A stretch of 64,000 bases of DNA, from contig CAVNZM010000013.1 in the NCBI GenBank assembly GCA_963693365.1, forward strand, positions 4,817,814 to 4,881,813, read 5' to 3'. This document shows positions 22,546-64,000 of this stretch, in pieces. The stretch is from Amoebidium appalachense. Taxonomy: Eukaryota > Protista > Ichthyosporea. The notes below the pieces were generated by a model. It ran no database searches. It saw nothing but the letters and a program-made list of their open reading frames with translations, and was not told where the DNA came from. Within the stretch, counting starts at the first letter, position 1, and each line of letters opens with the position of its first letter. The translations under genes and the position numbers were made by a program.

Positions 22546-40006
<17,461 letters not shown>

Positions 40007-41232
40007 GGCGTCGTAATCTGCATGGCATAACCAGCAACTAGGCTACGTCCTTCGAATTCGGTGCCACGGATCTGCCTGGAGAAAAGGGTGCCCTGAATTC
40101 TTTCTATGCCAACAACCCGGGGAGCCAGTTCTACACCACAAAACCTTCCTAATTCATAAACTCGCTTCTAAGGACCAAAAAATCCTCCCATCTCTGAAGC
40201 TCCTTTTTCATCTGACTAATGGGTGGTGCCGCAATCTTTGAACCTCCGAGGCCACAAAACTGAAACTTTGAAACCTCGATTGCTCTAGACTCTCATTGTC
40301 ACCTCTGTCAGTCTGTGACAGTCACCTGATGACGTCTTACAAGCAAAATCCCCAATGGCCATTCGCTGCCAGCACATCAAAGTATCATAGTCGAACATTT
40401 TTTTTTTGCACTTTTACCATATCTGGTTATTTGCTTGGGGAATTTGCGTAACGAGGTTACATGAGCCTAAGTTTTATTGGCTACGCGCGCACCAGCATGA
40501 CGTCACAATTGACATCAGACACTGTGTGACCGAAACCACGGCCCTCTGAAAACGGATTTCTCGAGGACCACGCCGAAACGCAGCGTTGCTGCGAACAGCT
40601 GCCAGGCTGCAGGTGAACGAGCCCAACCCACACAAGAGGGTCGGCCCAAACTACCCCGAAAATACAACCTTCCTCTACCAACCCATGCAACCTGCAGGGC
40701 CAGCGCTTTCCATCTGTCACTACCCAGCAGATGTCAAGTTGCCAGCATCAAAGCCCCTCTCAGCACCTTAAGTCCCCCGGCCAATTGCAGCACGAGCACA
40801 GCCACCCATGGATGCACATGGAGGTACGTAGCTGGCCCGGGCTCCACCTAAACGCTAGACGACCACAAGCAGCCACGAGCAAACGCCCTCCCCCTCCCGA
40901 ACTATGTACAGCCCCCACGTGTTTTGAAAGAAACCAGTCAGCTGCCACCTGTACACACCATAGCGCAAATCCAACCTCACAGCCTTCCCCCCTTCCCCCC
41001 CCCTCCCCCGGGGCGACCTACCGTACCCTCTCTAAATGTATACTGTCTAGCTTCCAACACACATTCAAATACAAGAACCCACAACCCCATCCACCCAAAC
41101 CTGACCCCTTTCAAACAAGTAATGAGCTAGCACGGCTGCATTGGCATGTCGCCTATAAAACAGCAGCAAAGATTCTAATGGAAAATTCCCGCGGAAACAG
41201 CCCATATATATATAATCAATATGTATAAGCCT

Positions 41233-41685
41233 TTGGACTGCTCCCCCTAGTTGAACAGTTTGGGGGGAAAGCCGAAGGCTCTAAATTCGGATATTCGGGA
41301 TTTGGTTGTAAGGTTTTACGGGTCGGGCCGAAGGCCTTAACGGGCCGCAGGCCCGCCTATTGGGCCGCCAGGCCCGGGGCCCCGGGGACCGGGGGCCTCC
41401 CCACCCACGCGGGCCACCCCCCGGCCCGGCCCGGCCCGCGGGGGCACGGGGAGTAGAGCTCTACTCCCCGTGCCCCCGCGGGCCGGGCCGGGCCGGGGGG
41501 TGGCCCGCGTGGGTGGGGAGGCCCCCGGTCCCCGGGGCCCCGGGCCTGGCGGCCCAATAGGGCGGGCCTGCGGCCCGTTAAGGCCTTCGGCCCGACCCGT
41601 AAAACCTTACAACCAAATCCCGAATATCCGAATTTAGAGCCTTCGGCTTTCCCCCCAAACTGTTCAACTAGGGGGAGCAGTCCAA
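41233..41685. repeat. Spacer-less near-perfect palindrome, arms of 226 and 227 bp, centre gagtagag|ctctactc at 41458/41459
   Basis: Arms compared by eye; the only difference found is a 1-nt indel (gcccgcctat vs gcccgccctat). Confidence 0.95.
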
Positions 41686-41816
41686 TATTGCTTCGCTCTT
41701 TCCAGTAGATCACTTCCAAATATCTATCACGTGATGACCTTCCCGATTGTTCTTCCAATGACATTTTCTATCACTATCGACAGTTCTCCAATATTAGAAC
41801 AGAAAACGGTTTATAC

Positions 41817-41908
41817 CCACATGGCCAGATGGCCAGATCAAATCCAGTCTGTGAGCAGGGGGGGGGATCCACCTGAAGTCAAAACAATCTGGCCATCTGG
41901 CCATGTGG
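41817..41908. repeat. 22-bp perfect inverted repeat (ccacatggccagatggccagat) with a 48-bp spacer
   Basis: 41817-41838 matches the reverse complement of 41887-41908. Confidence 0.9.
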
Positions 41909-41940: not shown

Positions 41941-42925
41941 TGCCACCACTGGGGGGCGTGGTTCCGGCAGCAGGGGGGGAGGGGAGGCACACGTGCACAG
42001 GAGGCCGGGGAGAGTGGGGGAAGCATGTTGGAATGCCACCACTGGGGGGCGTGGTTCCGGCAGCAGGGGGGGAGGGGAGGCACACGTGCACAGGAGGCCG
42101 GGGAGAGTGGGGGAAGCATGTTGGAATGCCACCACTGGGGGGCGTGGTTCCGGCAGCAGGGGGGGAGGGGAGGCACACGTGCACAGGAGGCCGGGGAGAG
42201 TGGGGGAAGCATGTTGGAATGCCACCACTGGGGGGCGTGGTTCCGGCAGCAGGGGGGAGGGGAGGCACACGTGCACAGGAGGCCGGGGAGAGTGGGGGAA
42301 GCATGTTGGAATGCCACCACTGGGGGGCGTGGTTCCGGCAGCAGGGGGGAGGGGAGGCACACGTGCAGGGGGGCTGGGGAGAGTGGGGGAAGCATGTTGG
42401 AATGCCACCACTGGGGGGCGTGGTTCCGGCAGCAGGGGGGGAGGGGAGGCACACGTGCAGGGGGGCTGGGGAGAGTGGGGGAAGCATGTTGGAATGCCAC
42501 CACTGGGGGGCGTGGTTCCGGCAGCAGGGGGGGAGGGGAGGCACACGTGCACAGGAGGCCGGGGAGAGTGGGGGAAGCATGTTGGAATGCCACCACTGGG
42601 GGGCGTGGTTCCGGCAGCAGGGGGGAGGGGAGGCACACGTGCACAGGAGGCCGGGGAGAGTGGGGGAAGCATGTTGGAATGCCACCACTGGGGGGCGTGG
42701 TTCCGGCAGCAGGGGGGGAGGGGGAGGCACACGTGCAGGGGGGGCTGGGGAGGCACACGTGCACAGGAGGCCGGGGAGAGTGGGGGAAGCATGTTGGAAT
42801 GCCACCACTGGGGGGCGTGGTTCCGGCAGCAGGGGGGAGGGGAGGCACACGTGCAGGGGGGCTGGGGGAGTGGGGGAAGCATGGCACCGCTGGGGAATGG
42901 CACCACTGGGGGCGTGGTTCCGGCA
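41941..42925 (+). repeat. G-rich ~93-bp tandem array, about 10 copies
   Basis: tgccaccactggggggcgtggttccggcagcag... recurs at 41941, 42034, 42127, 42220 and onward. Confidence 0.95.
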
Positions 42926-43394
42926 GGCCAGCAAGAGGGCGGATATGTGAGGCACACATGCTGGCGAGGAGGGCAAGGAGGGCGAGACTGGCGAGCCACC
43001 CACAGTGAGAAAGTATTATGTATGCATAGAGCATGTTGCCTGTGCAGCAGGTAGATGTGCATGAGGCACCAGAGTGGTGCAAGTTTCTGGTGGCTCTGTT
43101 TGACTAATAAAGGCATATGCTGCAACCACTGGGGGCCTGGTTCCGGGAGGAGGGGGGGCTGGGGGAGGGGGAGGCTGGGGGGCCGGGGGGGGAAGCATGG
43201 CACCGCTGGGGGCGTGGTTCCGGCAGCAGGGGGGGCTGGGGGGAGGGGGAGGCTGGGGGGCCGGGGGGGCGGAGGAGGCGGGGGGGCCGGGGGGCGGAGG
43301 AGGGGGGGCTGGGGGCCTCACAGTTGGTTCCGGGGGGCACGGGGGGGGGGGCTGGGGGGGGGGCAAAAAGTCTCTCTCTCCTATGCACACATAT

Positions 43395-43454
43395 ACTAAG
43401 TGTGAGGCCGGGAGGCCAAATATAAATGCTAAGTGTGAGGCCGGGGGATGCAAA

Positions 43455-43487
<33 letters not shown>

Positions 43488-44200
43488 CAGGCCAAATATA
43501 TATGCTAAGTGTGTAATGCTAAGTGTGAGGCCGGGGGGCCAAATATATATGCCAAGTGTGTGATGCTAAGTGTGAGGCCGGGGGGCCAAATATATATGCT
43601 AAGTGTGTAATGCTAAGTGTGAGGCCGGGAGGCCAAATATATATGCTAAGTGTGTAATGCTAAGTGTGAGGCCGGGGGGCCAAATATATATGCCAAGTGT
43701 GTAATGCTAAGTGTGAGGCCGGGGGGCCAAATATATATGCTGTGTGAGGCCGGGGGATGCAAAAAGCTCTCTCTCTCTCTCTCTCGGCAGGCCAAATAAT
43801 GCTAAGTGTGTAATGCTAAGTGTGAGGCCGGGGGGCCAAATATAAATGCTAAGTGTGTAATGCTAAGTGTGAGGCCGGGAGGCCAAATATATATGCTAAG
43901 TGTGTAATGCTAAGTGTGAGGCCGGGGGGCCAAATATATATGCCAAGTGTGTAATGCTAAGTGTGAGGCCGGGGGGCCAAATATATATGCTGTGTGAGGC
44001 CGGGGGATGCAAAAAGTCTCTCTCTCTCTCTCTCTCGGCAGGCCAAATAATGCTAAGTGTGTAATGCTAAGTGTGAGGCCGGGGGGCCAAATATATATGC
44101 TGTGTGAGGCCGGGGGATGCAAAAAGTCTCTCTCTCTCTCTCTCGGCAGGCCAAATAATGCTAAGTGTGTAATGCTAAGTGTGAGGCCGGGGGATGCAAA

Positions 44201-44245
<45 letters not shown>

Positions 44246-44323
44246 CAGGCCAAATATATATGCTAAGTGTGAGGCCGGGAGGCCAAATATAAATGCTAAG
44301 TGTGAGGCCGGGGGATGCAAAAA

Positions 44324-44359
<36 letters not shown>

Positions 44360-44548
44360 CAGGGAGGGGGGAGGGGGGAGGGGGGCAAATAAATGCATCC
44401 GTGCATGCAAATAATGCTAGAGACCGGGAGGGGGGAGGGGGGAGGGGGGCAAATAAATGCATCCGTGCATGCAAATAATGCTTAGTGTGAGGCTGGTGAA
44501 TCCGGGGGCCAAGTAAATGCATCCGTGTGAGGCCGGGGGATGCAAAAA

Positions 44549-44586
<38 letters not shown>

Positions 44587-44664
44587 CAGGCCAAATATAT
44601 ATGCTAAGTGTGAGGCCGGGAGGCCAAATATAAATGCTAAGTGTGAGGCCGGGGGATGCAAAAA

Positions 44665-44702
<38 letters not shown>

Positions 44703-44885
44703 CAGGGAGGGGGGAGGGGGGAGGGGGCAAATAAATGCATCCGTGCATGCAAATAATGCTAGAGACCGGGAGGGGGGAGGGGGGGGGAGGGGGCAAATAA
44801 ATGCATCCGTGCATGCAAATAATGCTTAGTGTGAGGCTGGTGAATCTGGGGGCCAAGTAAATGCATCCGTGTGAGGCCGGGGGCA
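43395..44885 (+). repeat. Mosaic subterminal tandem array of modules gctaagtgtgaggccggg, ccaaatatatat and gatgcaaaaag(tc)n-ggcagg
   Basis: Dozens of recurrences of gctaagtgtg(t/a) modules. Confidence 0.9.
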
Positions 44886-45142: not shown

Positions 45143-45853
45143 CTACTTGCTGGGCGCGTGTCTCTTGGGGTCATGCTCGACATCGTCACTGCCTCTCTTA
45201 CCACCCTTCGGGGTGGTGGTGCGAGGGGTACCCAAAAGCGCGGGGGGGGGTCCCGGAACGACACGGCCGGGAGGGGCAGGGGGCTTTGTTGAGCCGGCCG
45301 GGAGGGGCAGGGGGCTTTGTTGAGCCGGCCGGGGGGGAGGGGGCTTGCGGTGGGTCTGGTCGGAGGGGTTGTACACAGAACTCATCGGGTTTTCGTCGAT
45401 ACATGCAGACAGCCTGTCACGCTGAAGCCTGTACTCTTCAGCCGTGGCCCTCACGCTCGCCAACTCGACCTCCCTTGCCTGAAGAGCATCCCGAGTCTCC
45501 TTCAGCTGCTGCACAAGCCCCGCTACATTACCGTACCCACGGGACATACGATGGAGCAATTCTTGTGCTTCATTCGCACTCGATGCTGCAGACTCTTGTA
45601 GAGCCTCGTTCTGGCGTTGCAGAGCTTCGTTCTGGCGAACAACTTTCCCCGAAACCTTCTCGACGTCGACGGACAACGACTTGAGCTGCTCCTCGACAAC
45701 ATTGACCCGATTGCAAAGCTCGTTCCACGTCTCGGGGGTGACATAGACCCGACGGCAAAGCTCGTCCCACATCTCGGGGGTAACACGGAAGGTCTTTTCC
45801 CCCTCACCCCCCTCCCCACCCCCTTGACTATGCGGAGACTTGGGCTCTGACAT
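45143..45853 (-). CDS. Hypothetical coiled-coil protein, 236 aa
   Basis: Intronless ATG ORF with an internal duplication (VTPEMWDELCRRV/VTPETWNELCNRV), a long heptad-like stretch and a Pro-rich tail. Confidence 0.65.
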   Translation of the reverse strand: MSEPKSPHSQGGGEGGEGEKTFRVTPEMWDELCRRVYVTPETWNELCNRVNVVEEQLKSLSVDVEKVSGKVVRQNEALQRQNEALQESAASSANEAQELLHRMSRGYGNVAGLVQQLKETRDALQAREVELASVRATAEEYRLQRDRLSACIDENPMSSVYNPSDQTHRKPPPPRPAQQSPLPLPAGSTKPPAPPGRVVPGPPPALLGTPRTTTPKGGKRGSDDVEHDPKRHAPSK

Positions 45854-47104: not shown

Positions 47105-47306
47105 CACGTCTTAGCGCTACACATTTTTAGCCACAGCAAAACTTCCTTTTACCCCGAAAGATTTTCTACTACACGTCTTAGCGCTACACATTTTTAGCCA
47201 CAGCAAAACTTCCTTTTACCCCGAAAGATTTTCTACTACACGTCTTAGCGCTACACATTTTTAGCCACAGCAAAACTTCCTTTTACCCCGACAGATTTTC
47301 TACTAC
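47105..47306 (+). repeat. Three 67-bp tandem repeats immediately upstream of the JmjC gene ATG
   Basis: cacgtcttagcgctacacatttttagcc... at 47105, 47172 and 47239. Confidence 0.9.
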
Positions 47307-47356: not shown

Positions 47357-48090
47357 ATGGCCGGTTCCGATTTTCAAGAATGGCTCGGCACAACACAAGC
47401 CTACCCATATGCTAAACGTGCAACTTTTCATTTTTCCACCTCTTTCGATGCACACAACGTTTTTGCACATGGGCGGGTCCACGCTATAGAACGCATCGTT
47501 TTGGTGGGAAACAAAACTGCCGATTATCCTGTCAGGCTCTCCATTCTACACAAGGACGAGCAACACGAAATTCTTATGTTTTTCAAAAAAGGCAAGAAAG
47601 GAGAGCAGTCAGGCTGGAAAATTAGGGAGGAAAAGTTCATAGCCGGAAAGATACCAGGAAACGTAATGAAAATTCTGAGACAGGGGGGGAAAGACTGGGA
47701 AGTTTACGATTTGGGGGCATATGCCGACATACACAGAAAGACAATCGACTCCGGGTTCACGTTTGCTGCGGGCCCTGAATACAACGAGGATACCCCTACC
47801 CTTGCCAAGTTACTCTACCTTCTCAGAACATGCCCAATACCCGAAAAGGGGGATTCCCTTTCCATAAACGACGACCCAACACACAGACTCGAACTCAGTC
47901 ACACAATTCGAACAAACATGACGGACCGTGATTGCGTTCTGTTTTTTGGCGGGGTTCGTTATATCAGACTCCCTTCTCTCCAGAAGGCTGCCACCTTGTG
48001 GGCTGCCAAACGTCTTCGTCTTAACAATTTCTCGGCCAGATTTGCGGCGGTAGCAAGCCCACTATCGAGGCTGGCGCCGCCTGCAGGTTG

Positions 48091-48125
<35 letters not shown>

Positions 48126-50937
48126 ACACACACACACATGCACACACACACACACACACACATGCACACACAAAAGGCATTCGGGCACACACATGCACAC
48201 ACACAAAGGCATTCGGGCACACACATGCACACACAAAAAGGCATTCGGGCACACACATGCACACACACAAAGGCATTCGGTGACACACATGCACACACAA
48301 AAAGGCATTCGGGCACACACATGCACACACACAAAGGCATTCGGGCATACACATGCACACACACAAAGGCATTCGGTGACACACATGCACACACAAAAAG
48401 GCATTCGGGCACACACATGCACACACACAAAGGCATTCGGTGACACACATGCACACACAAAAAGGCATTCGGGCACACACATGCACACACACAAAGGCAT
48501 TCGGGCATACACATGCACACACACAAAGGCATTCGGTGACACACATGCACACACAAAAAGGCATTCGGGCACACACATGCACACACACAAAGGCATTCGG
48601 TGACACACATGCACACACAAAAAGGCATTCGGGCACACACATGCACACACACAAAGGCATTCGGGCACACACATGCACACACAAAAAGGCATTCGGGCAC
48701 ACACATGCACACACACAAAGGCATTCGGGCACACACATGCACACACAAAAAGGCATTCGGGCACACACATGCACACACACAAAGGCATTCGGGCACACAC
48801 ATGCACACACAAAAAGGCATTCGGGCACACACATGCACACACACAAAGGCATTCGGTGACACACATGCACACACAAAAAGGCATTCGGGCACACACATGC
48901 ACACACACAAAGGCATTCGGGCACACACATGCACACACAAAAAGGCATTCGGTGACACACATGCACACACACAAAGGCATTCGGGCACACACATGCACAC
49001 ACACAAAGGCATTCGGGCACACACATGCACACACACAAAGGCATTCGGGCACACACATGCACACACACAAAGGCATTCGGGCACACACATGCACACACAA
49101 AAAGGCATTCGGTGACACACATGCACACACAAAAAGGCATTCGGGAACACACATGCACACACACAAAGGCATTCGGTGACACACATGCACACACAAAAAG
49201 GCATTCGGGCACACACATGCACACACACAAAGGCATTCGGGCACACACATGCACACACAAAAAGGCATTCGGGCACACACATGCACACACACAAAGGCAT
49301 TCGGGCACACACATGCACACACAAAAAGGCATTCGGGCACACACATGCACACACACAAAGGCATTCGGGCACACACATGCACACACAAAAAGGCATTCGG
49401 GCACACACATGCACACACACAAAGGCATTCGGTGACACACATGCACACACAAAAAGGCATTCGGGCACACACATGCACACACACAAAGGCATTCGGGCAC
49501 ACACATGCACACACAAAAAGGCATTCGGTGACACACATGCACACACACAAAGGCATTCGGGCACACACATGCACACACACAAAGGCATTCGGGCACACAC
49601 ATGCACACACACAAAGGCATTCGGGCACACACATGCACACACACAAAGGCATTCGGGCACACACATGCACACACAAAAAGGCATTCGGTGACACACATGC
49701 ACACACAAAAAGGCATTCGGGAACACACATGCACACACACAAAGGCATTCGGGCACACACATGCACACACAAAAAGGCATTCGGGCACACACATGCACAC
49801 ACACAAAGGCATTCGGGCACACACATGCACACACAAAAAGGCATTCGGGCACACACATGCACACACACAACTCCCAATATTTACACACACCACCCACCAC
49901 ACACAGAGCAGGAAGAGAAGTTCCCAGTCGAACCCCAATCGCCCCGGTCCACGACACCCATCATCTCCAGACGTATTCCAACCTTTCGCTTGACACCTGA
50001 CATATTGGAGAGGTACACACTGGAGCAGTTCCTGTACAAAATCGGCAAGTATGACGACGTGAGGAGGGCGGGGGCTGCGAGGCTAGTCCTACCCGAGGAG
50101 GTGAAGGAGGCACTGGCAGCAGCATCCCAGGAGCTGGATTTGCCCGGCAGACCCCACAACGTACAAAATCTGCAGGCAACAGAAAACAAAGACGTATATG
50201 CTCTGACGCATGAACTGGACCACGGTAACCTACCGGCCCCACAGGTGTGTTACTTGAGTTTTGGATGGAGAGGAAGCCTCACACCTAGCAATGTTTGCAT
50301 TTACTTGGCCTGCCGAGAGACACTTTTTGCACGCCCCGGCCTCACACTTAGCAATGTTTGCATGAATTTACTTGGCTTGTTTTTGCACGCCCCGGCCTCA
50401 CACTTAGCAATGTTTGCGTGATTTTAAAACTTGGCCTGCCGAGAGACACTTTCTGCACGCCCCGGCCTCGCATGCCCTGACTAAACATTATACTAACATT
50501 GCAACCCGTGAATTAGGGCAATGCATCGTTGTCCGAGAGAGAGTTTTGGGACATGCTGGACGAGCATTGGCCTGAAAGCCGTCCCGAGGAACGGAATCAG
50601 TTGGGGAAACCTGTGTTTGAATTCCACTACGCCAACGAGCACAGCATTCCACCTGGCACACGCACCCCCAGCGAGGTAAGCGGGCGAAGTTGCTCTGCAC
50701 ACCATTTCAGCACTTGCAACCTCCCCTTTGTGACCCCCAATCCCGCACATTGCATCGTTTGTATAGTTGCACCATGCCTCCGGACCGTAGCTATGTAGCT
50801 AAGTGCATGCCCATTCAGGTGGTCAGCGAGACCTACAAATGGATGCCCAATTTAAGGAAATTGGACTCTGTTCTTCATCGCATCCATGAATACCAGCACC
50901 TCGACGGGATATGCATTCCCATGTTTTACAAGTACTA

Positions 50938-50968
<31 letters not shown>

Positions 50969-52210
50969 AAAAAATCCTCACAAGAATTCAGAATAGTTCA
51001 CTTGCCCGCACAGATTTCCCGTCCTCACTCACCCTCCCGACCTCTAATTTTGAATTGACTACCCCATATCCACACACAAGAATTCAGAATAGTTCACTTG
51101 CCCGCACAGATTTCCCGTCCTCACTCACCCTCCCGACCTCTAATTTTGAATTGACTACCCCATATCCACACAAGAATTCAGAATAGTTCACTTGCCCGCA
51201 CAGATTTCCCGTCCTCACTCACCCTCCCGACCTCTAATCGAATCGACTTTGTTTCAATCTTTTGCAGGTCCCGCTATCTTGGTTTGTTCGGCCCACATCC
51301 AGAGGATGCTGCCTTCGGCAGTCTCAACCTAATGGTTGACGGTCCGCACGGAAAACACTGGTATTCGATTAGCCCTGGCAGTCGAGATCGTGTCGAAAGG
51401 GTCCTTCGGGATATCCATCCGGATGCAAAGTCCAAGAAGCCGTGCCCTGGGTTCATGATGCATAAGGTAAGCAGCCAAATTAAGCAAAAGACACGGCACA
51501 AAGGCATTCGGGCACACACATGCACACACACGACACAAAGGCATTCGGGCACACACATGCACACACACGGCACAAAGGCATTCGGGCACACACATGCACC
51601 ACACACGGCACAAAGGCATTCGGGCACACACATGCACACACACGGCACAAAGGCATTCGGGCACACACATGCACTTAAGCAAACACACGGCACAAAGGCA
51701 TCGGGCACACACATGAACACCCAAAGGCATTCGGGCACACACATGCACACTATCATGTGCTTACACCCGGGGTGGGACAGAATATTTTTGTGAACCCGAG
51801 GCTGTTTGGAAAAAGGGGCATCCACGTCTACCATGCAGAGCAAAGGCCGGGCGACCTTATTTACACCCTGCCTGGGGCCTACCACATGGGGTTCGCCTCT
51901 GGCGCCCCACCTTGCCGAGGCGGTCAACTTTGCAACTCGTGATTGGTTGGAACATTTGAACGGGAAGGTACCCCCGTTTTGCACATGCCCCGATCGCCAA
52001 AACGAGACATTCGAGGTACAACCCCCACACCCCCCCCCCCAAAAAAAAAAAAAAAAAAAACGAGACAATTCGTTGGTCTGAAGGTAGTTGAAACAATCTA
52101 TTGGTATCAAAGTAGTTACACACACACCATTACACCCCCGGTATCAAAGTAGTTTGGGGGATTAACTATTAAGCACCTAATCTATCGGTCTAACAGTGTA
52201 ACACACACGC

Positions 52211-52539: not shown

Positions 52540-52926
52540 TGGGGGAAACGTAGTTGTGGTGGTGTGGTGTGGGCAGTAGGCACATCTATAGGGTTCGTGG
52601 TGGGTGCGGTGGGGAAACGTAGTTGTGGTGGTGTGGTGTGGGCAGTAGGCCACACATTCACATCTATAGGGTTCGTGGTGGGTGCGGTGGGGAAACGTAG
52701 TTGTGGTGGTGTGGTGTGGGCAGTAGGCCACACATTCACATCTATAGGGTTCGTGGTGGGTGCGGTGGGGAAACGTAGTTGTGGTGGTGTGGTGTGGGCA
52801 GTAGGCCACACATTCACATCTATAGGGTTCGTGGTGGGTGCGGTGGGGAAACGTAGTTGTGGTGGTGTGGTGTGGGCAGTAGGCCACACATTCACATCTA
52901 TAGGATTCATGGTGGGTGCGGTGGGG
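52540..52926 (+). repeat. 78-bp tandem repeat, about 5 copies, downstream of the JmjC stop
   Basis: ggggaaacgtagttgtggtggtgtgg recurs with period 78. Confidence 0.9.
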
Positions 52927-53215
52927 AGAGACGTGGTACAAAGTTTTCATTGTTTCAACAAGTTTTTTTATTATTTTTGTATTTAGCTCGATACCAAAAA
53001 TTTCCGTAATGTTAACTCGAATGTGGTCTGCAAAAATATGTGACGTACCAAATTTTCTTTCCAAGTTTTTATGTGTATTGTAGTCACCCATAGTGGCGGA
53101 GAGACTCCAATAAATATACCAATTCTGCTTTGAATCTGTGACATGTGTGCAATCACACACACACACACACACACACAAAGCTCAACACACACACACACAC
53201 ACACACACACAAAGC

Positions 53216-54079: not shown

Positions 54080-54915
54080 AACGTTGATCAAAATCGGACT
54101 TGTGTTGTGGCACTCCGAATAATGGAATAAAACGTTGACCGAATTCGGATATGTGTTGTGGCACTCCGAATAATGGAATAAAACGTTGACCGAATTCGGA
54201 CTTGTATTAATTGCTACCGAGCACGCCGAAAAATGAGATGCAACTTTGCCCAAATTCGGACTTGTATTAATTGCTACCGAGCACGCCGAAAAATGAGATG
54301 CAACTCTGACCGAATTCGGACTTGTATTAATTGCTACCGAGCACGCCGAAAAATGAGATGCAACTTTGACCAAATTCGGACTTGTATTAATTGCTACCGA
54401 GCACGCCGAAAAATGAGATGCAACTTTGCCCAAATTCGGACTTGTATTAATTGCTACCGAGCACGCCGAAAAATTGACCGAATTCGGACTTGTATTAATT
54501 GCTACCGAGCACGCCGAAAAATGAGATGCAACTTTGACCAAATTCGGACTTGTATTAATTGCTACCGAGCACGCCGAAAAATGAGATGCAACTCTGACCG
54601 AATTCGGACTTGTATTAATTGCTACCGAGCACGCCGAAATATGAGATGCAACTCTGACCGAATTCGGACTTGTATTAATTGCTCCCGAGCACGCCGAATA
54701 ATGGAATAAAACGTTGACCGAATTCGGACTTGTATTAATTGCTACCGAGCACGCCGAAAAATGAGATGCAACTTTGACCAAATTCGGACTTGTATTAATT
54801 GCTACCGAGCACGCCGAATAATGGAATAAAACGTTGACCGAATTCGGACTTGTATTAATTGCTCCCGAGCACTCCGAATAATGGAATAAAACGTTGACCG
54901 AATTACTTGTATTAT
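54080..54915. repeat. 60-bp tandem array, about 12 units plus degenerate ends, many carrying a ccgaattcgg palindrome
   Basis: aattcggacttgtattaattgct at 54193, 54253, 54313, 54373, 54433, 54481 and onward to 54841. Confidence 0.92.
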
Positions 54916-54943: not shown

Positions 54944-56542
54944 CTACTGCGCTTGCTCCTGACTGCCCTTCTTGAACACGCTCATGACGAGGTCCCTTGT
55001 CAAGTCGTCTTCCATGTGCTCCCTCGCCATCTCCAGCATGGCCGCAGCAAAAGTCACAAAGTCCACACCGAACAGCTCGCGCTCGACGTTCTTGTGTTTG
55101 AGTGCTGTGTGCAGGCACTTCTCCGCAAGCGCCAGCTGCTCGGACGGCACGGGCAGCGCAAAGAGCAGGCGCTTGTTGGGTCCCACATGCCACGTACCGG
55201 CCTGCTTCATGCGGCCCTTCACGTCCTTCAGACTGAGTCCGATTTTCAGGCAGGGCGGGTCGCCATACTCGGACACGAACACGTAGATGCCGGACTGCTG
55301 CTTGGTGCACACGTGGTTGGTGACCCGGCGCAGCTCCTCGCTGGCATCCTCGTATTCGGGTGGGATGTGGTCCTGCTTGATGCTGTCTGTTGCCTGGAGC
55401 TCCAAAAGCCGGCACTGCGCCTCGAGTTTCAGGCGCTCCTCGCGAATCACACCTGCGCGCTTGTCACACAGAGCGCCTTCCTCGCGCATCATCATGATCT
55501 CCGTGTACTGTGCAGATTCGGCGATGCGCGCCTCCTTGTACAGACTCAGTGCAGTTTCCATCTCGGCCTGGTTGGTCATGAACTGGGTGATGTCTCCGAG
55601 CTTCAGTCTCTTGGGCTCCCTCTCGGGTGTCCTGTCGGCATCCATTTCTGCTTGCACACTGTCACGCATGAAAGCGTTGGGTCCTGACGGGTTGGCCGCT
55701 GCCGTGGCACGGTTGCGCTCGATGTCCTCCACGAGTGTTTCGTCTCCACCTTCCAGGCGCGCTATATCTTGAGCCCACTTGTCGATGATCGCGGAACCAT
55801 AGCGTGAGCCAGATGCAATTTTTAGGGTTAGCCTACCCAGCGACTTAGCAGGCACACCAGGTGATGCCTTCCCTCCGACTTGAAATTGACAGTTGGTCAC
55901 GTTAAGAGAATCTTTGAGTTGAGGGTTATTCTGCAAGAGACGGCGCAGATAGCAACCCGCTGCATTCCTGTCCAAACCACGCACCAGCATGGTATAGTCC
56001 ACCAAGCTTGCCATCTTCACACCGTCGACCTCACATACTCGAATGGCATAGTCGCCAATGCCAATACATTCGCCTTTTTCAGCGACAATCTCGTCTGCGG
56101 TCATTACGACTTCGTTGTGTTCAGTTTCCATGGTTTGCGAGACTGAGGGGTTGTGATGTGTGTTGGGTCTTTTTATACCCTTGGGTTGACTGTCGGGGTT
56201 CACCTTGTTGGACATCAGCCGCGTGATAAAATTGATGCTGCTCATGCGAGCATGGTGCGCGCGCTTGCCGGGAAGAAGGAAGATGATCTCGAGGAGGTCA
56301 CGGAACGAGGCCACTGGGGTGAGCCTCCCCACTCCATTGATGCGAAGTTGGTAAATGCGGCTTACCAAAGGCTTTTTGGATTCATTTCCACCCTTTTTCA
56401 TCTCATGCCAAGCCATCTTGGCAGCATCCATTCCAAATGCTCTGTCCGGTAGCCATGCTGTGTCAGACTGACCCCAGTTGGCTGTGTGTGCTCCTTTTAT
56501 ACCTGCGCACATCAGTCGTGCCGAGAATGCTGGCAGCAACAA
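54944..56542 (-). CDS. Bro-N-like DNA-binding protein with coiled coil and a C-terminal T5orf172/GIY-YIG-like domain (start uncertain)
   Basis: N-terminal IRVCEVDGVKMASLVD..GGDETLVEDIERN; C-terminal SGIYVF..LKIGLS..RMKQ..AEKCLHTALK..RELF. Confidence 0.75.
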   Translation of the reverse strand: MLLPAFSARLMCAGIKGAHTANWGQSDTAWLPDRAFGMDAAKMAWHEMKKGGNESKKPLVSRIYQLRINGVGRLTPVASFRDLLEIIFLLPGKRAHHARMSSINFITRLMSNKVNPDSQPKGIKRPNTHHNPSVSQTMETEHNEVVMTADEIVAEKGECIGIGDYAIRVCEVDGVKMASLVDYTMLVRGLDRNAAGCYLRRLLQNNPQLKDSLNVTNCQFQVGGKASPGVPAKSLGRLTLKIASGSRYGSAIIDKWAQDIARLEGGDETLVEDIERNRATAAANPSGPNAFMRDSVQAEMDADRTPEREPKRLKLGDITQFMTNQAEMETALSLYKEARIAESAQYTEIMMMREEGALCDKRAGVIREERLKLEAQCRLLELQATDSIKQDHIPPEYEDASEELRRVTNHVCTKQQSGIYVFVSEYGDPPCLKIGLSLKDVKGRMKQAGTWHVGPNKRLLFALPVPSEQLALAEKCLHTALKHKNVERELFGVDFVTFAAAMLEMAREHMEDDLTRDLVMSVFKKGSQEQAQ

Positions 56543-57782: not shown

Positions 57783-59198
57783 TTATTGTTTGGTTTCTGC
57801 GTCCGTTGGATTGGTTTTCGCTTTAAACGGAGCCAATAGCCTCTCCATATCTTCCATCGAAACTAGCCTGCTGAACAGCACGCCAAGGTCTTGCGTCACC
57901 TCGTGCCAATCATAGAACAGGTACCCCATGCGGATGCGCCCGTCCTTGAACAGCGCGACGTAGTCTATGTCTCGCACATGTCTGATGGCGACCGTGAGTG
58001 CCTCGAGCCTCTGCTTCATTGGAGTTCTCTGTGTTTTGCTGTCGACCTTGAATCCGTGTGGGTTGAATCGAATAAACATGGTCGGCACTTCGTGCGCAGA
58101 TGCCTGGTTGAACATCCGTGCAATCTCGCACGTGGTGTCATAAGCACGGTGTTGCTCTTCGTCCACCTCGACCACAAGTACAAATGTCCCAAAGTCGTAG
58201 TAGAGATCAGGACGAGTGCGCTCCCCACAATCATTTGGCACGATTTTGTCGTGGCTGGTGGGTGGACCTATGGAACGCGATATGTGACGTAACACCTTTA
58301 TTTCAGGACGCGCCTCAGACCACTTAGCTCGGCGTATGGATTGTGGGTCGCAAGTGGCGCATAGGTTTCCCCTCTTGTGTACTTGTGTCAGCGTGCACGC
58401 CACGCAGAAGTTGCGCAGGTCACACAGCCTGCAGGTACGCCTATGCTTACCGTGTTCACAAACTCCCTTTCCACCACATGCTTTGCAATGATACCTCCGT
58501 TTACCGTGGTCGCAAACACTGGATCCGCCGCACAGATTACAATCGAATTTCAGTTTGCCATGTTTGCAAACACCCAATCCGCCACACGCTTTGCACGCAT
58601 ACCTTCGTTTACCGTGTTCGCAAATCCTGGATCCGCCACACAGATTACAATCGCATTTCAGTTTGCCGTGTCCGCAAAAACCGGATCCGCCGCACGCCTT
58701 GCACTGAGACCTTTGTCTGCCGTGTTCGCAAATCCTGGATCCGCCACACAGATTACAATCGCATTTCAGTTTGCCGTGTCCGCAAAAACCGGATCCGCCG
58801 CACGCCTTGCACTGAGACCTTTGTCTGCCGTGTTCGCAAAAACTGGATCCGCCGCACGCCTTGCACCGAGACCTTTGTCTGCCGTGTTCGCAAACACCCA
58901 ATCCGCCACAAGCCTTGCATGAGTACCTTTGTCTGCCGTGGTCGCAAACACCGAGTCCGCCGCACGCCTTGCACCGAGACCTTTGTCTGCCGTGTTCGCA
59001 AAAACCGGATCTGCCGCACGCCTTGCACCGAGACCTTTGTCTGCCGTGTTCGCAAAAACCGGGTCCGCCGCACGCCTTGCACCGGTCCCTCCGTTTACCG
59101 TGTTCACATTCAGGATAACATTTTTTCGATTTCATTTCCTTTATTGTGTCGACAGAGTTCATTCCCATTATAAGTGACAGAAAATATTGCACATACAC
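57783..59198 (-). CDS. Cys/His-repeat (CEHGRQRSRCKACGG, 18-aa unit) protein with a C-terminal PD-(D/E)xK-type endonuclease, NCLDV-type
   Basis: About 13 zinc-binding repeats followed by RPDLYYD..VVEVDEEQH..CEIARM..FIRFNP. Confidence 0.85.
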   Translation of the reverse strand: MYVQYFLSLIMGMNSVDTIKEMKSKKCYPECEHGKRRDRCKACGGPGFCEHGRQRSRCKACGRSGFCEHGRQRSRCKACGGLGVCDHGRQRYSCKACGGLGVCEHGRQRSRCKACGGSSFCEHGRQRSQCKACGGSGFCGHGKLKCDCNLCGGSRICEHGRQRSQCKACGGSGFCGHGKLKCDCNLCGGSRICEHGKRRYACKACGGLGVCKHGKLKFDCNLCGGSSVCDHGKRRYHCKACGGKGVCEHGKHRRTCRLCDLRNFCVACTLTQVHKRGNLCATCDPQSIRRAKWSEARPEIKVLRHISRSIGPPTSHDKIVPNDCGERTRPDLYYDFGTFVLVVEVDEEQHRAYDTTCEIARMFNQASAHEVPTMFIRFNPHGFKVDSKTQRTPMKQRLEALTVAIRHVRDIDYVALFKDGRIRMGYLFYDWHEVTQDLGVLFSRLVSMEDMERLLAPFKAKTNPTDAETKQ

Positions 59199-59378: not shown

Positions 59379-60794
59379 TCAGGCGTGGGACCCCTGCCCC
59401 AGGCAGTCCTTCTTGTGCTCACCCCAATCGCGGGTCTGGCAGTCCCTGCTGCAGTAGTAGACGTGCTTACAGGCCGAGCACTTCTTGGTGCGCCCGGTCG
59501 AGCCGCAGGTGGCACAGACGACAGAGGGCAGCTTGTCGATGAAGTGCTTGACGGCCCGGTTGCACCATTCATACATACACATGTTGTCCATGTCGTACTC
59601 CGTGGACACGGGAAGAGTGCTCACCGCAAACTCCGCAATCTGCACAACAGCCTCGGGCGTGGTGTGCTCGAGGCCGGAAGACGCGCACAGTACATGAAGC
59701 ATCATTCTGAAGACAATACCGGCGCCCGTGCTGATGTTTCCGGCATACAGGGCATTGTAGTCCCGCTCCTCCAGCACGTAGCGGTGGAAGACACAGTAGT
59801 GCCTAAAACACGCGAAGTAGGCAGCCATGTTGCGTTCGGCCGCAGTCACCGTTGGGTCGTTCACCCATCTCCGCTCCTCTATAGCACGCATCTCGCCCGC
59901 CAGGGTAGCCTCGCATTCCATGTAGCGCTCCTTGTTGCGAAACACACGCAGGTCGCCGCACTCCAGAACTTTTAGCATCAGGTTGCAGACCGGGTCCGAG
60001 TGGAAACGCAAGTGGCTGTCCATGGTGTAGACCACGACCTCGTTTTTCGACACCGTTGGGTCTTGGTGGGTGGGTTGCTCCTTGCAGTCCTTCTTGTGCT
60101 CGGGCCACTTTTGTTTCATACAGATGTCATTGCAGAAGTAGGCGTTTCTGCAGCGGGTGCACTTCTTTGTGTCGACGGGCGAGCGGCACTGGAGACATGA
60201 CACGGAAGGCAACTCGTTCACAAAGTGCTCGACGGCCCGGTTAGCCCAATCATTGTACACCACGTCGTCAATGTCCTTGCATAACGTATACGTACGCAAG
60301 GCGGAAGTGGCCGGCTCTTGACTGAAGTGGGCAGGGGGTCGGGCCTTGAGACCGGACCGCTCGCATAGCGCCGTCCCCACGAGCATGAAGAAGTCCTGAA
60401 CCCCTTGACCGAGCGTGCCCTCGTGGAGAGCCTCATGGTCCGGATTCCCCAGCACGTAGCGCTGGAAGGCGGCGTACATTGGGAACGCGATGGAGTGCAG
60501 ACAAGTGTCCCAGAGGGGCGGCACCCGCCCAGGCCCGTGGGGTTGTCTCTCCAAATGCAGCAGCAAAGTTTTCATGTCGTTTTCAAGGACTGAACGGAAC
60601 GCAGCGAAGCTCTCCCGTGTTTCGAAGATGCGGAGGTCGCCGTCTCTCGCAACTTCCAGCAGCCGAGCGCTGACAGGGTCCCGGTGGAGCCGATACTTGT
60701 CGTCCACGGCATAGACGACGACCTTGTCCGTGTCCGAGCCGGGGGGCCGGACGATGAAAGGCAAAGCCACGGCCTCTTCAGGTGTTTGGTCCAT
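59379..60794 (-). CDS. Protein with two tandem [unknown domain + MYND zinc finger] units
   Basis: CLQC..KKCTRCRNAYFCNDICMKQKWPEHKKDC and CATC..KKCSACKHVYYCSRDCQTRDWGEHKKDC. The two halves are homologous (VVVYAVDDKYRLHRDPV / VVVYTMDSHLRFHSDPV). Confidence 0.88.
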   Translation of the reverse strand: MDQTPEEAVALPFIVRPPGSDTDKVVVYAVDDKYRLHRDPVSARLLEVARDGDLRIFETRESFAAFRSVLENDMKTLLLHLERQPHGPGRVPPLWDTCLHSIAFPMYAAFQRYVLGNPDHEALHEGTLGQGVQDFFMLVGTALCERSGLKARPPAHFSQEPATSALRTYTLCKDIDDVVYNDWANRAVEHFVNELPSVSCLQCRSPVDTKKCTRCRNAYFCNDICMKQKWPEHKKDCKEQPTHQDPTVSKNEVVVYTMDSHLRFHSDPVCNLMLKVLECGDLRVFRNKERYMECEATLAGEMRAIEERRWVNDPTVTAAERNMAAYFACFRHYCVFHRYVLEERDYNALYAGNISTGAGIVFRMMLHVLCASSGLEHTTPEAVVQIAEFAVSTLPVSTEYDMDNMCMYEWCNRAVKHFIDKLPSVVCATCGSTGRTKKCSACKHVYYCSRDCQTRDWGEHKKDCLGQGSHA

Positions 60795-61978: not shown

Positions 61979-62569
61979 TCACACGAGTTGGTTGCCCGGT
62001 TGATCTTGTTGTTTGTGTTTATGCACCTCCTTTCGATGTCGCCACAGCCCACTACGCCATGAGAAGGCCTTTGAGCACCCTTCCTCAGCGCATATGTAGG
62101 AGCGCTGACCTGTATGGATGCGGTTATGAAATTTAAGCGCGTTGGCAGTTTTGAAGGTTGCTTCACATCCAATAGCCTTGCACATTAGCTGTTGTATTGG
62201 ATAGTGCGTTCGTAAGTGCATAAGAAGTGCCCCCCGATATGAAAAGCGCCTGCCACACCCCTCGTGTTCGCAAGCGTATGGGCGTTCACCCGTGTGTCTT
62301 CTTTTATGTCGCAGAAGTCGTCCAGATGTCGGAGCCCTGTAGGTGCATCCGGTGTAGTTGCATTCAAATTTTTTTACTCCAGTGTGAGTTGTCATGTGTG
62401 CGTCCAGGCCAACCTGCTGTGTGCACCGTACTGCACAACCAGGCCATGTACAGGAAAATGGTTTTTCACCGGTATGACATGTGGCGTGACGTTGGAGGTT
62501 CTGCTTTGTTGCAAATTTTTTATTACATATCGCACATATATAGTCTTGCATATTCATGTATGGCATCAA
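61979..62569 (-). CDS. Intronless C2H2 zinc-finger protein with 6 fingers
   Basis: Canonical C-x2/4-C..H-x3/4-H fingers with TGEKPF, TGERPY and TGQRSY linkers. Confidence 0.9.
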   Translation of the reverse strand: MMPYMNMQDYICAICNKKFATKQNLQRHATCHTGEKPFSCTWPGCAVRCTQQVGLDAHMTTHTGVKKFECNYTGCTYRAPTSGRLLRHKRRHTGERPYACEHEGCGRRFSYRGALLMHLRTHYPIQQLMCKAIGCEATFKTANALKFHNRIHTGQRSYICAEEGCSKAFSWRSGLWRHRKEVHKHKQQDQPGNQLV

Positions 62570-62785: not shown

Positions 62786-64000
62786 CTATTCCAGCGAACC
62801 AAGACGGTCCTGCTCCATGGCCTGACAAACATCTTTCGACAGACCAACCCTCTCAAACGACAAAACATAACAGTACCGAGATGCTCCATTGACCTTGGTA
62901 GCCACTGGTTGTCCCAAAATAGCTCGAAGCGCACTACCAAACAGCTTTTGGCTTGGTCTCTGACTGCGCCCGGTTGCGTTCCGCTCGTGCCACAGACGAA
63001 AGTAGTTAAACAGGTCGGTGCTGGTGAACCGTTGGCCATCAACAGGTCTGGGCCATTCCTCACATCCGTTGTCCCCCGTCACAAGGTCGCGTAGAAACTG
63101 CAGTTCGTCTGGCCGTCCAAGATCTGTCAACCGTGAACGAAGTTCGGTTGTTGGAGGGGTTGGCATACGCTGGGGGACATTCACTTCAGCCATCAGCTCG
63201 TCCAAAATTGCCTGGAGAACAGATGGATTGGAGTGTCGTTCCTTGAATTCCGCAAAGTATGCAAACTGCCCCTTCCTCTCCGACGAAGATTCAAAACAGG
63301 CCCATCGTCGGTCACCCTCCTCTAGATTCAGTGGGTGTGACTCGTTGCTGAGAATCACATAGCGTTCACAACTCTCCACAGTAATGATGTCACACCCCTT
63401 CTTTTCCATAAGGCTTGTGGTTTCCGTAACACGGGCCTTCATCTGGTTGATGATATCAACATTACCATGCCAAAACACCTCATCGCACACGATGAGCAGT
63501 CGGTTGTTGAGATGGGCATTGAAGTTCCCACCAACGTGCTTTTTGTTTGTGACGGACACATAGTAGTCGCGTCCGATGATATCACCCAGGACATCAAAGA
63601 ACACGTTCTTGCCCACACCTTGGACTGACCGGAAGACGAGAGCCACTCCTGGTTTGATGTCAGGGTACTGAAAGAGCTGGGCCAACCAGTGACGTGTGTA
63701 GAGGTAAGCTTTCTCGTCGTAGTTGCACAACATGCGAAGATGGTCAAAAAACATACTGGTTGCCGATTGCGCGAGAGGGCGTGTGGGGTTGTGCACTATC
63801 TTGAGTCCACGAAAAATGTTAAAAGGACGGCCTTGCCTCATGACATTTTGTGCACGACGCTTCCCCGTCCGTGGATCCGGGTCTGCTGGGTCAAACACAA
63901 AGCGCGAATATTGCAGTATGTGGTCACTCTCCATGAACCAGGTACCCTTGTAGACACGCGTGATGGGCCGATTGCGCTCAAAAAATTCCATTCTGAAGAG
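62786..64000 (-). CDS. D5-like primase-helicase, SF3 helicase part; 5' end probably beyond the window
   Basis: Walker A region KPGVALVFRSVQGVGKN, Walker B LIVCDE, ILSNE and DRRW, with a probable C-terminal winged helix. Confidence 0.88.
   Translation of the reverse strand, partial: LFRMEFFERNRPITRVYKGTWFMESDHILQYSRFVFDPADPDPRTGKRRAQNVMRQGRPFNIFRGLKIVHNPTRPLAQSATSMFFDHLRMLCNYDEKAYLYTRHWLAQLFQYPDIKPGVALVFRSVQGVGKNVFFDVLGDIIGRDYYVSVTNKKHVGGNFNAHLNNRLLIVCDEVFWHGNVDIINQMKARVTETTSLMEKKGCDIITVESCERYVILSNESHPLNLEEGDRRWACFESSSERKGQFAYFAEFKERHSNPSVLQAILDELMAEVNVPQRMPTPPTTELRSRLTDLGRPDELQFLRDLVTGDNGCEEWPRPVDGQRFTSTDLFNYFRLWHERNATGRSQRPSQKLFGSALRAILGQPVATKVNGASRYCYVLSFERVGLSKDVCQAMEQDRLGSLE

Follow-up and report, generated by a model that had tools for sequence, protein, structure and literature searches.

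The closest case to the locus described here, among the systems covered by the sources available to us, is that of Halocafeteria seosinensis, in which terminal palindromes have been described in endogenous virophages of subtypes 1, 2, 5 and 6 and in the polinton-like virus (PLV) subtype 4 (bioRxiv 10.64898/2026.07.28.741278). In the figured subtype the palindrome is 52 nt long and lies beside a TSD, and priming by the hairpin is put forward there as an untested proposal (bioRxiv 10.64898/2026.07.28.741278). Giant endogenous viral elements are known from Amoebidium appalachense, where multi-exon JmjC-only KDM4-like genes are found in 39% of insertions (PMC11244446). The borders of these insertions were defined by methylation, and integration was called apparently stochastic (PMC11244446).

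Other giant viruses integrate through defined ends. Phaeoviruses use a tyrosine recombinase with CC dinucleotide targets, carry an internal telRL palindrome and likely have covalently closed telomeres, and punuiviruses integrate with long TIRs and TSDs; these accounts, as far as their available text goes, contain no palindrome of comparable size at a host junction (PMC13236599, PMC12993054). Among hairpin-ended genomes, vaccinia has AT-rich, incompletely paired hairpins that flip and flop (PMC8956199), and the ends of kaumoebavirus are incompletely paired as well (PMC11814242). Terminal resolution in AAV relies on a site- and strand-specific nick (PMC11014581). No terminal palindrome of the kind reported below is described in the accessible parts of three further accounts (PMC12220804, PMC11296320, PMC12210455), and our literature search, in which subscription journals were thinly covered, returned no report of one on a giant-virus insertion.

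We analysed a stretch of DNA of 64,000 nucleotides (the window) in which a large palindrome separates host DNA from virus-type genes. Short-read evidence was taken from assembled contigs: the stretch is present in 12 DNA runs from three studies, and four runs (X1, X2, X8 and X9) were compared. X1 and X2 are different samples from different studies, and X8 comes from a related organism, C. Only two X9 records aligned, both in the left flank, and no inference is drawn from their lack of palindrome cover. In our judgement there is about an even chance that a repeated virus-like element, likely an Amoebidium giant-virus insertion, has its fixed left end in this palindrome, and that the palindrome likely preserves the trace of a hairpin telomere which, after opening at a defined position, was copied out before being joined to the chromosome.

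A near-perfect palindrome at the border between host and virus-like DNA

The sequence-only reading of this stretch had pointed to a spacer-less, near-perfect palindrome centred on AG/CT, which our analysis confirms (Table 1). The arms, of 226 and 227 nt, are exact reverse complements save for one 1-nt indel (after 41355 in one arm, at 41562 in the other). Outward from the centre there are 103 perfect pairs, compared with 23 at the second-best centre in the 64 kb (an AT microsatellite) and with at most 9 in triplet shuffles of the surrounding 1 kb (n = 300). The very GC-rich core (83% GC in 41321-41458) and the ggccc repeats, present as a run of three or more CCCGG units at 41420-41439, were likewise recovered. 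The internal sub-palindromes are present too, with stems of 6-8 bp, but the fold of one arm is no more stable than that of shuffled versions (z -0.51, with 56 of 200 shuffles equally stable), and we therefore rejected them as a special feature. Pieces of the arm of 24 and 22 nt had no exact match among viral or metagenome contigs.

Table 1. Positions of the features of the palindrome, its host flank and the adjoining virus-like element in the window.
Feature	Position	Strand or place	Description
Single-copy host flank	39800-41232	left of insertion	flat depth 107.8 (X1), 35.5 (X2)
Six junction bases	41227-41232	between end of X8 match and palindrome terminus	TSD, filler or polymorphism
Palindrome	41233-41685 (453 nt)	left border of virus-like insertion	arms 226/227 nt, without loop
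Outer arm	41233-41458	+	226 nt; terminus 5'-TTGG at 41233
GC-rich core	41321-41597		copies vary by short tandem units and indels
Centre, inferred hairpin tip	41453-41464		GTAGAG/CTCTAC, spacer-less, 6-bp palindromic core
Inner arm	41459-41685	-	227 nt; terminates in CCAA
High-copy inner segment	41686-41940	+	255 nt, includes second hairpin
Second hairpin	41817-41838 and 41887-41908		22-bp perfect arms, ATGGCCAG repeats, 48-nt loop
Subterminal tandem arrays	41941-44883	+	92-, 47-, 110-, 341-bp units and others; 92-bp array first (41941)
236-aa intronless ORF	45143-45853	-	coiled-coil, Pro-rich; no family, only weak coiled-coil matches
Multi-exon KDM4-like JmjC gene	47357-52018	+	exon limits approximate
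522-aa intronless ORF	54944-56512	-	T5orf172-like C-terminus, Pfam E 0.009, below cut-off
Cys-repeat intronless ORF	57783-59168	-	C-terminal domain common to giant-virus EsV-1-7-repeat proteins
MYND-finger intronless ORF	59379-60794	-	Pfam E 3.7e-17
C2H2 zinc-finger intronless ORF	61979-62566	-	Pfam E 4.8e-18
D5-like (DUF5906) primase-helicase	62786-64000	-	Pfam E 6.6e-18; frame open at window end

The palindrome sits exactly at the step from single-copy to high-copy DNA, with virus-type genes beyond it, in agreement with its earlier placement at a host/virus border. The description of the outer arm as abutting AT-rich, host-like DNA holds for the 30 nt of host sequence nearest the palindrome (20% GC) but not for the 1.4-kb flank as a whole, which has 51% GC. 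Microsatellite and homopolymer runs occur at 5.7 per kb in the left 39.7 kb versus 0.4 per kb in 53.5-64 kb. The host part also contains a tRNA-Arg(TCG) gene at 34283-34358 (minus strand) and three near-identical blocks of 150-190 bp (35160-35330, 36055-36245 and 36500-36645). A GTAAG donor shortly after an ATG, at 40006-39987 (minus strand), suggests a host gene start about 1.2 kb left of the insertion, transcribed away from it; at 40470-40520 lie what we take to be CCAAT-like and TGACGTCA motifs upstream of this putative start.

Organism C shares the flank as far as 41226; over 40220-41226 its sequence departs by 15 other letters and 23 gap letters, and the flank depth in X8 is about 11.5. 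At 41226 one X8 contig departs from the window and continues for 461 other letters, which fits an empty or differently filled insertion site in that organism. The six bases that follow, 41227-41232, are not repeated after any CCAA end further right within the window. Beside the palindrome, the left flank ends in AAGCCT and the right flank begins with TATTGC; these are not direct repeats, and the comparison yielded no TSD pair on the two sides of the palindrome alone. Lacking a TSD on its sides and bordered inwards by high-copy DNA, the palindrome taken by itself does not qualify as a simple MITE.

Short-read contigs enter the arm from the flank and cross the centre

A palindrome of this size could arise from fold-back chimeric reads, a concern raised at the outset and now checked against the short-read contigs: the palindrome is present in them, X1 crosses its centre, and both X1 and X2 cross the host junction. 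The contigs leading from flank to arm reach 15 letters into the arm in X1 and 14 in X2, below the 31-letter bridging threshold. X1 record 8 spans 41418-41473 without mismatch at a depth of 204.7 and extends 15 letters beyond the centre, against the same 31-letter threshold. We infer that assembly on a 31-mer graph has to reverse when it meets a perfect palindrome, which matches the stop of this record 15 letters past the centre. At the other end, X2 record 12 (41656-41717, depth 366.6) connects the inner arm with the inner segment.

Low-depth X1 contigs jump from 41261/41262 to 41671 over a G5 microhomology, and both arms must therefore lie on one molecule. The flank contig breaks there because 41671 mirrors 41247. 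These skip products, which are without the palindrome interior and leave a 15-bp mini-hairpin, are a library artefact or a somatic deletion.

Copies of the arm diverge in sequence and share a common end point

Contigs in the arm and the adjoining 255 nt reach about 10 to 76 times single-copy depth, rough figures in that contig depth is not copy number: the inner junction stands at about 10 times and parts of the inner segment at 65-76 times. Single contigs of the inner segment range over 14-76 times in X1 and 16-65 times in X2, with 34 times in X8. This segment intervenes, together with its second hairpin, between the inner arm and the 92-bp array, and the earlier impression that the inner arm runs straight into tandem arrays has to be corrected accordingly. 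The loop of the second hairpin differs between copies, and elsewhere short tandem repeats take its place; the hairpin is a candidate protein-binding or resolution site. No Rfam match reached its gathering score, and two miRNA-hairpin matches far below theirs were taken as chance.

Among the X1 records on the arm region, 100 of 162 are less than 99% alike and 29 of 162 aligned only partly, as did 10 of the 17 X8 records. Divergence between copies amounts to 1-10%, while the arms within this copy differ by one indel in 227. Given identical arms within the copy and divergence between copies, one arm is best explained as having been copied from the other.

The copies have a common end. Five X1 contigs carry long, mutually unlike loose ends at 41233 (median 154 letters, agreement 0.56) and two further contigs have loose ends at 41232, giving seven that join at 41233 +/-1, and three X8 contigs (2+1) with differing flanks join the arm at 41233/41232. 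About 510 other letters are attached at exactly 41233 in X1 records 2 and 3, and X8 record 10 begins exactly at that base with a depth of 185, or 16 times single-copy. Among the 12 of 19 loose-end rows listed, every long loose end starts at 41232 or 41233, and the eight that fall within the arm measure just 10-35 letters each and represent variants of the core sequence. Such core variants have loose ends or joints at 41302, 41375, 41376 and 41407-41409. The sequence-only reading had predicted an outer arm of variable length in a P-nucleotide-like palindrome; the differing flanks that meet the arm at 41233 +/-1 (seven X1 and three X8 contigs) do not bear out the variable length, nor is the model supported by the 12 of 19 rows listed, which show no long loose end inside the arm.

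A shorter variant of the arm, seen in nine X1 and two X8 contigs, likewise ends in CCAA and in X1 continues into identical inner bases; arm and inner segment therefore travel together. Some or all of the long flanks at 41233 may be variant inner sequences rather than host junctions, and single-copy inner variants exist (X2 record 15). A canonical TG...CA integrase end was considered and rejected: the T at 41233 is included in an X8 contig, so that the end reads TTGG.

Genes to the right of the palindrome are of giant-virus type

The KDM4-like assignment comes from the exon at about 51269-51466, for which 37 of 38 matches in the PDB belong to the KDM4 family; the best is weak (KDM4D/A, E 0.008), and the Pfam JmjC match of the same exon (E 0.04) falls below the cut-off. 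Splice donors of the gene lie at 48087, 50245 and 51467. The first exon (47357-48086, about 243 codons) had no homologue in any search and would be an N-terminal domain without a recognised family. A Relaxase hint on 47357-48082 (E 0.023, below cut-off) was discarded for want of Atlas, homologue or PDB support and with a fold pLDDT of 31. Exon 49909-50244 had no PDB match, and exon 51794-52015, in the frame tried, matched KDM4 in the PDB at E 0.8-1 only. On these weak single-exon scores the window holds a multi-exon, JmjC-only KDM4-like gene among intronless genes, an arrangement described for Amoebidium insertions. Introns of the gene (48155-49870 and 51491-51750) are packed with minisatellite DNA, made up of 54 copies of a 32-bp unit and of related units, and more tandem arrays lie inside the element at 54080-54904, 52581-52927, 50974-51238 and 47105-47306, with units of 60, 78, 96 and 67 bp, respectively.

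The subterminal arrays contain 22 occurrences of a 13-nt motif, which is also present in inverted orientation at two places within an intron of the KDM4-like gene and is absent from the left 41 kb. The terminal module is thus tied to the element at this locus, and the link of the high-copy module to virus genes rests on this one locus. We also considered that a short transposon might be nested here, with its end near 45 kb, and rejected this, having found neither a second terminus nor a TSD in the window.

Several of the intronless genes have viral relatives. The Atlas look-alikes of the 522-aa ORF fall into T5orf172/Bro-N clusters that are mostly viral, and the Cys-repeat ORF has 15 homologues, including Faustovirus FSTVLC9_298 (E 1.3e-13), 13 of which contain PF19114 (EsV_1_7_cys). 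The D5-like helicase matches DNA primase in PHROG (E 2.9e-33). Its best relative is 44% identical, and most of the ten best are 341-503 aa long; such short relatives do not decide between a giant virus and a PLV. Searches of viral and metagenome contigs with the helicase alone or with a 14-sequence alignment brought up no related locus. Of the core NCLDV genes (MCP, A32, VLTF3 and D5 primase), the D5-like helicase alone lies within the window. Capsid, ATPase, PolB and integrase genes were not found in the 23 kb of the element that the window covers (16 ORFs scanned), nor was a resolvase, tyrosine recombinase or nicking/joining enzyme found within the window. These 23 kb likewise show neither the far end of the element nor a TIR. 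Since this mix of genes matches the published description (PMC11244446, to the extent of its available text), the element would be an Amoebidium giant-virus insertion.

Discussion

The locus shares features with several known systems and differs from each. As in the Halocafeteria elements, the outermost bases of the element, next to host DNA, are those of the palindrome, as shown by the depth step and the common end at 41233; those elements are small Polisuviricotina with a 52-nt palindrome, TIR and TSD in the account at hand, whereas here the palindrome measures 453 nt and accompanies a giant-virus-type gene set (bioRxiv 10.64898/2026.07.28.741278). With the insertions described in Amoebidium it has in common intron-poor virus genes in an intron-rich host, a D5 primase, KDM4-like genes and polymorphic insertions; unlike in that account, whose main text mentions no hairpin, palindrome or inverted repeat, the terminus is defined here (PMC11244446). 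The sequence-only reading had likened the palindrome to the hairpin ends of poxviruses, asfarviruses and chloroviruses. The likeness holds for position, with a fold-back at the extreme end and tandem repeats just inside (41941-44883), but not for structure: the viral hairpins, as far as the available descriptions go, are AT-rich and incompletely paired (PMC8956199, PMC11814242), while here the core is 83% GC, with 103 perfect pairs, and is integrated in opened form.

The T-shaped centre of the AAV type is absent from this palindrome; in the AAV ITR, the centre is imperfect and T-shaped. The parvovirus ITR model nevertheless resembles the locus in that a nick unfolds a hairpin to give a complete palindrome whose end is fixed (PMC11014581). 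AAV has a small ssDNA genome and a Rep nuclease-helicase, whereas no Rep-like enzyme was found in the window. Phaeoviruses and punuiviruses are, like the virus proposed here, giant viruses that integrate via defined ends (PMC13236599, PMC12993054). The telRL palindrome is an internal site; here the left side is single-copy host DNA.

A copied arm together with a fixed end makes a hairpin telomere opened at a specific site the simplest route to this structure. The free genome would be linear, ending in a perfectly paired hairpin whose tip corresponds to the AG/CT centre. A site-specific nick opposite the TTGG/CCAA boundary, comparable to parvovirus terminal resolution, would open the hairpin, which would then be copied out into the full palindrome, and the opened end would be joined to host DNA. 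Upon release, the palindrome could fold back and prime replication, as proposed for the Halocafeteria elements. More tentatively, and as a possibility rather than an expectation, we suggest a giant-virus lineage with perfectly paired GC-rich hairpins that are opened in the parvovirus manner at one fixed site, the opened end entering the chromosome.

Two alternatives concern what the element is. The palindrome, inner segment and arrays could together constitute a non-viral repeat, such as a foldback or non-autonomous transposon, at or inside the viral border, which we consider fairly unlikely. Depths of 65-76 times single copy in parts, a fixed end and many variants would suit any transposon end, more than 13 kb separate the palindrome from the first clearly virus-type gene, and secondary TE insertions are reported in these elements (PMC11244446); yet neither a further copy of the terminus nor a matching TSD occurs in the window, the palindrome with its non-repeated flanks and high-copy inner flank is not a MITE by itself, and the array motif recurs in the KDM4-like intron while being absent from the left 41 kb. 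Alternatively, the same mechanism may have operated in a polinton-like virus, adintovirus or virophage, making the palindrome a long version of the Halocafeteria tips. We regard this as distinctly unlikely, with capsid, ATPase, PolB and integrase absent from the 23 kb next to the end, multi-exon KDM4-like and EsV-1-7-type genes being giant-virus features, and complete Amoebidium adintoviruses measuring about 30 kb (PMC11244446), even though the Halocafeteria palindromes accompany non-pPolB replication genes such as D5 primase-helicases (bioRxiv 10.64898/2026.07.28.741278) and a D5-like helicase, with mostly short nearest relatives, is present here.

The remaining alternatives concern how the end arose. 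Had a hairpin end been nicked at random and joined by host repair, the P-nucleotide-like arm would vary in length among insertions. We find this quite improbable: the outer arm stops exactly where inner variants also diverge, a point rarely hit by chance, and the eight listed loose-end rows inside the arm are all short sequence variants. It would, however, accommodate the six junction bases unmatched in X8 as repair filler, junction contigs from other loci might cover too little of the arm for alignment (15 letters here), and the end positions come from 12 of the 19 loose-end rows. The perfect centre with its 6-bp palindromic core recalls telRL (PMC13236599), and a telomere-resolvase or recombinase site could have been trapped at the border by rearrangement. 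This is very improbable, as telRL is flanked by virus DNA on both sides while here the DNA on one side belongs to the host and recurs in an organism without the arm at that place, and no resolvase or tyrosine recombinase lies within the window. An assembly artefact of fold-back long reads is highly unlikely. Short-read overlaps do remain under the 31-letter threshold, and X1 may be the sample used for the assembly; against this, contigs from two studies pass from unique flank into the arm, one X1 contig crosses the centre with no mismatch, the skip products could form only from a single molecule carrying both arms, and a read folding back would have no reason to end at a family boundary.

Taken together, these observations make it likely that the palindrome is the hairpin tip, in unfolded form, of a giant virus genome, which would integrate via a defined end. 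The insertions in Amoebidium have been regarded as stochastic (PMC11244446). With a fixed palindrome common to many copies there is a border marker from which exact ends, TSD status and full-length copies could be established, and it would give the likely genome form of a virus for which the literature found, in its accessible parts, reports no isolate. A terminal palindrome here would also widen the range of such structures, so far described in small virophages and PLVs, to include giant viruses. If a giant-virus lineage does enter chromosomes by hairpin ends opened at one fixed site, this would represent a third route of giant-virus integration beside the tyrosine recombinase of phaeoviruses and the TIR- and TSD-associated integrase of punuiviruses. 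The Amoebidium insertions would then be no accidents but programmed proviruses whose end signature can be searched for.
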